Assembly (NCBI GenBank): GCA_001938485.1
Contig: MQRK01198378.1
Span: 1-62,130 of the forward strand
Length of the DNA stretch: 62,130 nucleotides
Direction: 5' to 3'
Source of the DNA: Girardia tigrina
Taxonomy: Eukaryota
Shown here piece after piece: positions 8,631 to 10,715 of this stretch. Made by a program: the position numbers and the translations under genes. Every line of letters starts with the position of its first letter. The stretch's first letter is position 1. Under the pieces are notes generated by a model. The model made no database searches, was not told the DNA's origin, and was given only the letters and a program-made list of their open reading frames with translations.

Positions 8631-10715
8631 TTATACCTGTGTTTCGTTTACGTGCACCCCTGGCAGGTATTGCCCCAAGGATGTACGATATAAGTTTAAA
8701 GCCATCATCTTTTTTCTATGTTCTTTAAATATTTTAGTTAAGGAGAATATCAATAGAAAAATTAATCCAAACACTCCTATACCGTACATAATAAATGGCC
8801 ATTTATGTAATTCTTTATTTTGACTGAGTGTTCTATTATATACTAACTCTTTCGTGGTTAAATTGGAGATTGATTGAGTTATCATGTGTACGTGTTGCCT
8901 TTTGGGTTGAACGGAGTATTGATATACATCAAATTTGTCAAAAATGTCTTTTGAAGTGATAAGTATTTCCCAGGGCGTGTATTCAATTTGTTGTGCGTGC
9001 ATATTTTTACCGGGTATGGATAATAGTTTGTTATATACCCAAGTTAACTTTAATGATATCATTAAGTCAGATGATTGATAGATTAAAAAATTCAATAGTG
9101 TGGTTGTATTTTTAAAGGGTATTGTGTCATATTGTTCTTCAAATTGTGGGGTACATGATTCGAAACAGAAATGAAAGGAATATTCAAGGATAGTACCTAT
9201 ATCGGTTATTAGTGCATAAGAAATAAATGTTAAACTGATATTATATTGTGCCGGGTGGGCCTGAAATTTATCATTTTCAGAAGTAGAATTAAAAACAGAA
9301 AATAACAATGAAAGCTTACACTCATGTGTTATGTAAAATGTTAAATTTGTATAGATTTTCCGATCGTTACATATTGATTTAATGTAATTGTCATGTATCT
9401 GGATAATCTTTATGATAAATTGTAATTGTAATTGATTATGTTGATAGGCTTTGATTCTTATCTCAGAAGGAATATTGAGATCTATCTCTGTGCGTGCAAA
9501 TTGATAAAAGGGTGTCATCTTACATGTCATTTTATCACATATCTTACATGAGTACTTATTGGATTGTGTAATTAAGGAAAAAATGTTTGATGATGCTTCG
9601 ATCATCACTAATCTGGAGAATATCGCATTCTTTTCGGTTATGCGATAACTAACTGGATGTTTCGTGGCAATTTGTTTTTCAGTTACAAAATTTGTACGAG
9701 TGATTTCAATATTTCTCAAATTATCTTGAAAGTTGATATCGAATATCCAACCGTATTGTGAGCTATTGTAGTGCACTATTCGATGTGCAGATTTGAAAAT
9801 CATTGGAATTAAATTTATCATAAATGTAACGGAGAATATTTTTTTGCCATCCCTATTGATAAATATGCGAACTTGGTTTTCCATCCAGAGTTCACGGATT
9901 GTTGGGTTAAACTTTATGTCCATTACTCCGTCATCATACATATGACATTTGCTATAAAAACATACGTCTGTCCGATATTCTGGATTTAGTATTGCTTGAA
10001 ATGGTATTGCTTGTATTCTGCGGTTTCCTTTTTCTACACTATAATGATAAGCTATTTTACCATCATTATCGGCTATATTCAAATCTGAATACCCGATTAA
10101 TGTTTTTATTACTGTATTGAAAGGTGCTCTATGACATATTGCTGTCATCAGAGAGGTTTGTCCATTTTTGGCTTGTGAGTTTGCTAGATTATGAAGATCC
10201 TCTGGTCTTGTAGGTAATAATTTCATCACTTTGTGAAATTTTCCTCGTTGGATTGCTACTTGTATTGGAATATTTCCTTGATCATTTTTTGTCAGAAATA
10301 AATCCGGTCGATATATTTTAACTTTTCGAAATAAATCCATATTTTGAATATTCCCTTTTGCATATCGAAACGCGATATTATTATTATCTATTGTAGTTGT
10401 TTTTGTAAGGTATTCTACCTGTTCATTGTGAAAATGGAAGATCTGTTCAGTTATATTCTTATCTGAGAATAATTCTGTATTTACAATATTATCTTCTTGT
10501 GAAAACATTATATTGTCTTTTTCTTGAGTATTTGGTATCAAAATTGATGCAGTTCTGACTCGATTTAAGGATATATGTTTTGCTGGTTTACTCCGGTTCG
10601 CTTCAAGTTGATTTTCTAATTCTATTACGCAAATCTTTGACTGTGTATTTGATCGTAAATTATATCTTTTGGTTGGTTCGATCTCTGCCTTTTTACATCT
10701 ATTGGCGTGTATCAC
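8631..10715 (-). CDS. Ankyrin-repeat plus transmembrane (env-like) extension of Gypsy pol
   Basis: 694 open codons. Starts with integrase tail VIHANRCK..RYNLRS; ankyrin repeats GNIPIQVAIQRG, GQTSLMTAICHR, GKIAYHYSVEKG (~10025-10385); TM WPFIMYGIGVFGLIFLLIFSLT (8736-8801); basic KEHRKK; ends ETQV. Confidence 0.8.
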   Translation of the reverse strand: MIHANRCKKAEIEPTKRYNLRSNTQSKICVIELENQLEANRSKPAKHISLNRVRTASILIPNTQEKDNIMFSQEDNIVNTELFSDKNITEQIFHFHNEQVEYLTKTTTIDNNNIAFRYAKGNIQNMDLFRKVKIYRPDLFLTKNDQGNIPIQVAIQRGKFHKVMKLLPTRPEDLHNLANSQAKNGQTSLMTAICHRAPFNTVIKTLIGYSDLNIADNDGKIAYHYSVEKGNRRIQAIPFQAILNPEYRTDVCFYSKCHMYDDGVMDIKFNPTIRELWMENQVRIFINRDGKKIFSVTFMINLIPMIFKSAHRIVHYNSSQYGWIFDINFQDNLRNIEITRTNFVTEKQIATKHPVSYRITEKNAIFSRLVMIEASSNIFSLITQSNKYSCKICDKMTCKMTPFYQFARTEIDLNIPSEIRIKAYQHNQLQLQFIIKIIQIHDNYIKSICNDRKIYTNLTFYITHECKLSLLFSVFNSTSENDKFQAHPAQYNISLTFISYALITDIGTILEYSFHFCFESCTPQFEEQYDTIPFKNTTTLLNFLIYQSSDLMISLKLTWVYNKLLSIPGKNMHAQQIEYTPWEILITSKDIFDKFDVYQYSVQPKRQHVHMITQSISNLTTKELVYNRTLSQNKELHKWPFIMYGIGVFGLIFLLIFSLTKIFKEHRKKMMALNLYRTSLGQYLPGVHVNETQV

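Follow-up and report, generated by a model that had tools for sequence, protein, structure and literature searches.

A conserved C-terminal tail with a likely class I PDZ ligand on the predicted membrane protein of a Ty3/Gypsy-type element from Girardia tigrina

The analysed stretch of DNA (hereafter the window) comprises 62,130 nucleotides of contig MQRK01198378.1 from Girardia tigrina (assembly GCA_001938485.1) and is AT-rich eukaryotic DNA. Its reverse strand carries a retroelement copy preserved as two adjoining frames, an integrase frame and a 699-codon stop-to-stop frame (P0001). The main features of this copy, in the order in which they are read, were delineated as follows:

10712..11851, minus strand: Ty3/Gypsy-type integrase frame with H2C2 zinc finger, rve core and GPY-type C-terminal part (Pfam and PDB matches)
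10712..10730, minus strand: frameshift separating the integrase frame from the 699-codon frame, seen as an out-of-phase overlap that the relative P0002 reads through in one frame
8631..10730, minus strand: 699-codon frame with integrase end, linker, ankyrin repeats, ectodomain, transmembrane helix and tail
10011..10388, minus strand: ankyrin-repeat region, approximately aa 115-240 (Pfam Ank_2 at aa 158-237, E 1.4e-7)
10001..10010, minus strand: in-frame junction without ~160 residues of P0002, including a hydrophobic signal-like segment (P0001/P0002 alignment)
8114..8630, minus strand: non-coding 3' flank under family contigs, covered in sequencing runs X1-X3; candidate LTR

The element was assigned from its integrase frame, which gave Pfam matches to Integrase_H2C2 (E 8e-21) and rve (E 2e-9) and had Ty3 Gag-Pol as its top PDB sequence match (E 1.6e-28). 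An integrase with an H2C2 finger, an rve core and a GPY-type C-terminus at the end of Pol is the arrangement by which Ty3/Gypsy elements are recognised, and it is present here; the retroelement origin that an earlier note on this DNA had claimed for the protein is borne out by this adjoining frame and its best PDB match, in what is a broken copy. Upstream of the integrase the window holds short closed frames and no RT or RNase H frame, no LTR pair was found within the window, and the copy is 5'-truncated on this side. A search of the window for a second LTR copy or a purine tract belonging to the 3' flank (8114..8630) was also negative. Just beyond the truncated end of the element lie two adjoining copies of a unit of ~300 bp (12135-12738), which are 76.5% identical. 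At the in-frame junction, aa 240 of P0001 aligns with aa 376 of P0002 and aa 242 with aa 536, and contigs from the sequencing runs cease matching at 10001-10010. At this junction (9990-10010) a 9-mer occurs as a short direct repeat, the pattern of a deletion mediated by microhomology. The window copy is broken in three ways, by 5' truncation, by the frameshift and by the loss of ~160 residues, and is probably non-functional.

Several further features were recorded elsewhere in the window. Broken frames on the plus strand (24981-26777) match DNA polymerase B (organellar/viral) and endonuclease VII, and look to us like the remnant of a Polinton/Maverick-type element. On the minus strand, a diverged ubiquitin-like domain (47478-47999, Pfam E 2e-21) extends past its di-glycine into a charged extension and is possibly the cargo of another element; an unannotated 214-codon frame lies near it (46409-47053, minus strand). 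A fragment of a Polo-like kinase Polo box is found at 18960-19304 (minus strand), and a 149-codon frame with no Pfam match at 31708-32157 (minus strand) looks to us like the start of a retrotransposon Gag. Searches for tRNA genes and Rfam families gave no match.

Relatives of the protein were sought with residues 245-699 of the frame as the query in a HMMER scan of 1.84 billion protein representatives, which yielded four proteins (P0003-P0006, E 6e-45 to 2e-15), all aligned through the last residue of the query. When a profile was built from the last 60 residues, the search recovered these four proteins again among 5978 candidates, and of the word-index protein searches, an insensitive method, one gave only P0002 and another only P0003. 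P0002, from a JGI contig, is a single frame that runs from the integrase C-terminus through ankyrin repeats and a charged linker with RRKR to a signal-like segment and the ectodomain. The most complete relative is P0007, with ankyrin region, signal-like segment, two ectodomain repeats, helix and tail, and its ankyrin region and both ectodomain repeats are shared with the window copy in the same order. Identity to the window copy in the ankyrin region is 79% for P0002 and 39% for P0007-P0009. Linkage to an integrase is seen in the window copy and P0002 only, P0003-P0007 being known as proteins without genomic context, and residues 1-23 of P0004 are presumably translated sequencing-adapter sequence, which they resemble. 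The ESM Atlas gave no usable match, its two leads at 0.76 lying under the noise level, and flanking-locus scans of metagenome contigs, viral contigs and prokaryote genomes gave nothing usable; the viral contigs contributed two weak matches (32-34% over ~70 aa). A prokaryote match (L003) was rejected as chance, being the start of an unrelated bacterial frame, without a preceding helix and without T-Q-V. By these tests, the architecture of integrase, ankyrin repeats, internal signal, beta repeats, helix and conserved tail appears to belong to no named Pfam or PDB family.

The ectodomain of the window copy is built of repeats of ~120-130 aa, each with a cysteine pair:

9648..10010, minus strand: repeat 1, with cysteine pair, truncated at its start by the junction (over 51 aa, 82% identity to P0002)
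9282..9647, minus strand: repeat 2, with cysteines (pairwise, 17 bits to the first repeat of P0007)
8886..9281, minus strand: membrane-proximal repeat 3, for which a beta domain of seven strands is predicted (pairwise, 25-27 bits to P0004 and to the second repeat of P0007)

Three repeats are found in the window copy, two in P0007 and one in P0004, and the membrane-proximal repeat is always there. Likeness between different repeats, including that of repeat 1 to repeats 2 and 3, is an alignment pattern that is not significant pairwise. An AlphaFold2 model of repeat 3, calculated from an 8-row alignment, has seven strands (pLDDT 60, pTM 0.55), which we guess to form a cadherin-like sandwich. In fold searches with this model nothing reached significance (ASF1 ranked first, with Z 4.9 and rmsd 5.5 over 99 aligned residues), Foldseek gave best E values of 0.16 and 0.28 for a model of pLDDT 60, and no Pfam family scored above cut-off for the ectodomain. 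Single-sequence AlphaFold2 (pLDDT 36) modelled only one helix confidently, and the transmembrane segment lies within it.

The C-terminal part of the frame comprises the following features:

8736..8801, minus strand: transmembrane helix, aa 644-665 (hydropathy 2.48; present in all five aligned sequences)
8703..8735, minus strand: basic juxtamembrane part of the tail (K+R counts around the helix)
8658..8702, minus strand: conserved 15-residue tail core, ALNLYRTSLGQYLPG in the window copy (13-15 of 15 identical in all 10 pairs; 13 invariant columns)
8631..8645, minus strand: ETQV and the stop codon (T-Q-V invariant, E variable in the family alignment)

The tail itself occupies 8631-8735 (minus strand), where 34 codons (KIFKEHRKKMMALNLYRTSLGQYLPGVHVNETQV, ending HVNETQV) are followed by TAA. 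These codons are residues 666-699, which close the frame, and they come after its sole strongly hydrophobic 19-mer (aa 646-664, Kyte-Doolittle 2.48; runner-up 1.38), in agreement with the tail after a TM that the earlier note had described. Class I PDZ domains read positions -2 and 0 of their ligand, and T-Q-V-TAA presents the class I consensus of S/T at -2 and a hydrophobic residue at 0, right before the stop codon. As a lone occurrence the motif is not rare and carries modest weight, with [ST]xV ending 7 and [ST]x[VIL] ending 29 of the 1006 stop-to-stop frames of at least 30 aa in the window; it is raised above chance because it is conserved among relatives.

The topology of the protein was predicted from the distribution of charge, signal-like segments and sequons. 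In the five sequences, the 15 residues after the helix contain 5, 3, 5, 6 and 5 K+R, against 3, 3, 2, 1 and 1 before it, giving a positive-inside bias in four and equality in one. P0002, P0004 and P0007 have a hydrophobic signal-like segment (~2.0) ahead of the ectodomain, and in P0007 there are 10 sequons between this segment and the helix. A type I protein with a cytosolic tail is thus predicted for the family, and the basic cluster after the helix, the sequons on the opposite side and the signal-like segments of the relatives speak against the objection that the tail might be luminal. This prediction holds for the family and not for the remnant in the window, because the window copy is without the signal-like segment.

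All four relatives found to bear a C-terminus (P0003-P0006) have T-Q-V in the same column as the window copy, the last 56 columns being free of indels; T-Q-V also ends P0007, which clusters with P0005, and the tail after the helix is 34 residues long in all five aligned sequences. The class I PDZ ending x-S/T-x-V read in the earlier note is therefore upheld by a T-Q-V-stop that is invariant in 5/5, and a search for variation of the terminus or stop among homologues found both the terminus and the tail length constant (5/5). Conservation of the last four residues, a check proposed there, holds for T-Q-V and fails at -3, where the five sequences have E, V, Q, S and Q, so that ETQV occurs in 1/5. 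Fixed residues at -2 and 0 together with variable residues at -3 and -4 are the pattern expected from class I PDZ binding, which supports a PDZ ligand. Beyond the minimal PDZ consensus, Q at -1 and V at -5 are also invariant in the five tails.

The tail is far better conserved than the ectodomain that precedes it. Distant pairs are 65-79% identical over the tail and 18-23% over the membrane-proximal ectodomain, and the two closer pairs have 76% against 60% and 88% against 33%, respectively. Among the three deepest lineages, identical columns number 20/34 in the tail, 13/115 in the ectodomain and 5/22 in the helix (tail versus ectodomain, Fisher p 6e-8), and gapped columns 0/56 over the last 56 columns versus 49/165. 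Within the tail, the last three residues are identical (3/3) in all pairs, positions -7 to -3 are identical at two or three of five in 9/10 pairs, and the basic stretch is identical at 3-8 of 11. A sequon overlapping the terminal threonine in 3/5 tails is read as a by-product because it is missing from the other two. These comparisons involve only four relatives that bear the C-terminus, which represent ~3 or 4 independent lineages and are all gene-caller products. With only ~25 bits to a single ectodomain repeat, the searches are biased towards relatives in which the tail is retained, and tailless members may be missed; this bias leaves the fixed last three residues unexplained, as those residues add little to the score. 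The terminus is likely to be a class I PDZ ligand under selection, and the T-Q-V end is likely to face the cytosol and to bind a host class I PDZ scaffold.

The tail core also keeps two tyrosine-type positions and G-x-Y-L-P-G. Since this upstream block is conserved as much as the terminus, the tail is more than a PDZ ligand, and, taken with the invariant Q at -1 and V at -5, the block means that another partner could explain the whole tail. A C-terminal valine can act as an ER-export signal. The conserved tail might accordingly serve trafficking or capsid recruitment instead of PDZ docking, in which case the block would bind a coat adaptor or the element's Gag and the terminal valine would act in export. 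Retroviral Env tails have tyrosine sorting motifs and contact Gag, according to the accessible text of PMC3395148, as this explanation would have it. However, an export valine needs no threonine, and the threonine at -2 is fixed in 5/5 where -3 and -4 are free; we consider it somewhat unlikely that trafficking or capsid recruitment replaces PDZ docking, although the two functions are compatible and both could hold.

The abundance and variation of the element were examined in contigs from 4/20 sequencing runs. Over a 3.9 kb stretch, family contigs number 2404 in X1 and 1686 in X2, with identities to the window copy from under 90% to over 99%, and 208 in X3 and 22 in X4; the element is a dispersed multi-copy family, large and diverse. 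Contigs cease to match at 8631, the stop codon (27 in X1 and 3 in X3), and at 8727, near the start of the tail (3 in X2 and 2 in X3). These loose ends indicate that the tail-coding stretch is common to divergent copies and the flanks are not. Indels were found at 8616-8623, just 3' of the stop codon, and none of the listed substitutions (40/715) or indels (12/28) falls within 8631-8735, with 24/675 loose ends listed. Certain contigs match at 80% or more across the tail-coding stretch alone.

This last observation would also be consistent with a helix-and-tail cassette that was acquired from a membrane protein of the host, or that recombination exchanges between subfamilies, the similarity then reflecting recent shared origin or domesticated host genes. 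The protein is modular, as its repeat number of one, two or three indicates, and no integrase linkage is in view for P0003-P0007. However, no host protein with such a tail was found in the protein searches, and the ankyrin region and two repeats are shared in order between P0007 and the integrase-linked copy. The patchy conservation of the tail, with a variable basic stretch and variable positions -7 to -3 around a constant core and a constant last three residues, is also unlike a recent block transfer, and the captured cassette is regarded as doubtful.

Conservation of the stretch as nucleic acid, for example as a packaging, priming or integration signal with the peptide as a by-product, would suit its position close to where the 3' end of the element is presumed to lie and the alignment of divergent contigs at the DNA level. 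However, matching stops at the stop codon with indels directly behind it, predicted folding is no better than that of shuffles (z -0.65; 43/200 as good), and there is no purine tract of at least 11 in 7960-8640 and no Rfam match, which makes such a signal very improbable. A chance ending of a decayed frame, which the broken state of the copy and the ~3% of window frame ends that fit [ST]x[VIL] might suggest, is largely refuted by the same terminus in 5/5, as keeping both positions over three lineages would have a probability of ~0.002 if they were as free as the ectodomain (rough estimate).

The reading that we prefer, with a rough probability of 0.55, is that a Gypsy family encodes the protein as an accessory type I glycoprotein, which is anchored through host PDZ scaffolds at a membrane domain for assembly or cell contact. 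In intact members, the Pol frame would extend through the ankyrin repeats up to the internal signal-like segment, which would bring the beta repeats, one to three in number, into the ER lumen; a cut at this site would free the type I glycoprotein. Its tail would carry two signals, the terminal PDZ ligand and the upstream 15-residue tyrosine-containing block, the latter for a second partner, which may be the capsid of the element or an adaptor of the host. In a complex prediction run without alignments, the ankyrin region of the element scored 0.01 with the tail. The PDZ scaffold would keep the protein in a selected domain of the membrane, and the likeliest purpose would be to direct particle assembly or cell contact to membrane that is junctional or polarised, as has been proposed for Dlg and HTLV-1 Env. 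The tail observation on which the earlier note was founded stands, with the qualifications, overlooked there, that the copy is a remnant, that the protein ends the Pol frame in a relative and that a longer block precedes the motif.

A more specific proposal, which is speculative and which we hold to be unlikely, is that the protein is a non-fusogen, adhesion-receptor-like glycoprotein, cut from the Pol end, with a tail that mimics host junction proteins by combining a tyrosine motif with a PDZ ligand and anchors particles at junctions for cell-to-cell passage. If true, retrotransposons would have, in such junction-anchored passage, a way to spread without either a classical Env or a FAST-like fusogen. 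More generally, a tail that is two-thirds identical beneath an ectodomain at ~20% points to a fixed inner partner and a fast-changing outer surface, as at a host-parasite interface, and the tail may offer a short, inexpensive peptide handle on the ways in which retrotransposons lacking a classical envelope exploit membranes and perhaps pass from cell to cell. PDZ-binding motifs of viruses are well documented. Among the matches listed in a literature search, whose scope lay outside Repbase entries, the original Burro paper, figures, supplements and most subscription papers, none describes a PDZ-binding motif on a membrane protein of an LTR retrotransposon.

The ETQV terminus is that of HPV18 E6, in which it shifts preference towards DLG1 relative to ETQL, as stated in the accessible text of PMC9987997. 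HPV18 E6, a soluble oncoprotein, shares its last four residues with the window copy as well as the class I consensus; because E at -3 is present in only 1/5 family members, the window copy, the parallel drawn in the earlier note is not retained and the match is considered incidental. Host tails that pair a tyrosine motif with a PDZ ligand are described for Crumbs and LAD-1 in the accessible texts of PMC3564977 and PMC2196473, respectively. The tail of Crumbs has 37 aa, against 34 here, with an internal tyrosine motif and a terminal PDZ ligand in both, and the L1CAM/LAD-1 peptide G-Q-Y-V-P resembles G-Q-Y-L-P of the window copy, Q being K in 3/5 family members. Both likenesses are analogies only, as no sequence homology of the element's tail with Crumbs or L1CAM/LAD-1 was detected. 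Ankyrin binding of the L1CAM type was set aside for the tail: of the sequence EDGSFIGQY given in the accessible text of PMC2196473, only G-Q-Y is present, in 2/5, with no F or acidic residues, which again leaves an analogy only.

Among retroelements, rotifer elements have varied transmembrane ORF3s, for which generic features are no proof of Env in the accessible text of PMC5408684. The sORF2/FAST-like proteins of the MDG1 group are separate ORFs of 60-210 aa with ectodomains of 10-50 aa and are often myristoylated (accessible text of bioRxiv 10.1101/2025.03.14.642691). They resemble the present protein in being non-Env membrane proteins of LTR elements with N-out/C-in topology and, following the helix, a patch of basic residues, and sORF2 is tied in that text to cell-to-cell spread. 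However, their size range does not include the present protein, the ectodomain of which follows a signal-like segment, has ~150-400 aa and contains sequons and cysteine pairs. The words 'PDZ' and 'ankyrin' are absent from the main text of that study (bioRxiv 10.1101/2025.03.14.642691) and from the main text of a survey of envelope-carrying Gypsy elements (PMC13524379).

The closest architectural lead is Burro/GYPSM1, a planarian giant Gypsy with one long polyprotein that includes ankyrin repeats and with thousands of copies in an AT-rich genome (accessible text of PMC6431247). Ankyrin repeats in a Gypsy polyprotein are common to both elements, which are compared here by description only; however, the text on Burro (PMC6431247) locates an F-like Env after Gag and before protease and, in its accessible part, mentions no C-terminal membrane protein or PDZ motif. 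Burro elements exceed 25 kb and carry BIR, BCL2 and MATH domains. Homology of the present ectodomain to F-type or gB-type Env was sought by Pfam, PDB-sequence and fold comparison without a match, the model used having a pLDDT of only 60. The furin-type motif R-x-[KR]-R is absent from the ectodomains of P0001 and P0003-P0007, and that of P0002 lies before the signal-like segment.

HTLV-1 Env is the product of a separate gene and is a retroviral fusogen. The element's protein differs from it in continuing the Pol frame behind ankyrin repeats and in having an ectodomain of one to three beta repeats. Human Dlg (Dlg1) binds the tail of HTLV-1 Env according to the accessible text of PMC3395148, and a paper cited therein describes this tail as having both a tyrosine motif for sorting and a motif that binds PDZ domains. 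As far as these accounts go, HTLV-1 Env, likened here by sequence alone, is the nearest precedent: a retroelement-encoded type I glycoprotein with a short tail.
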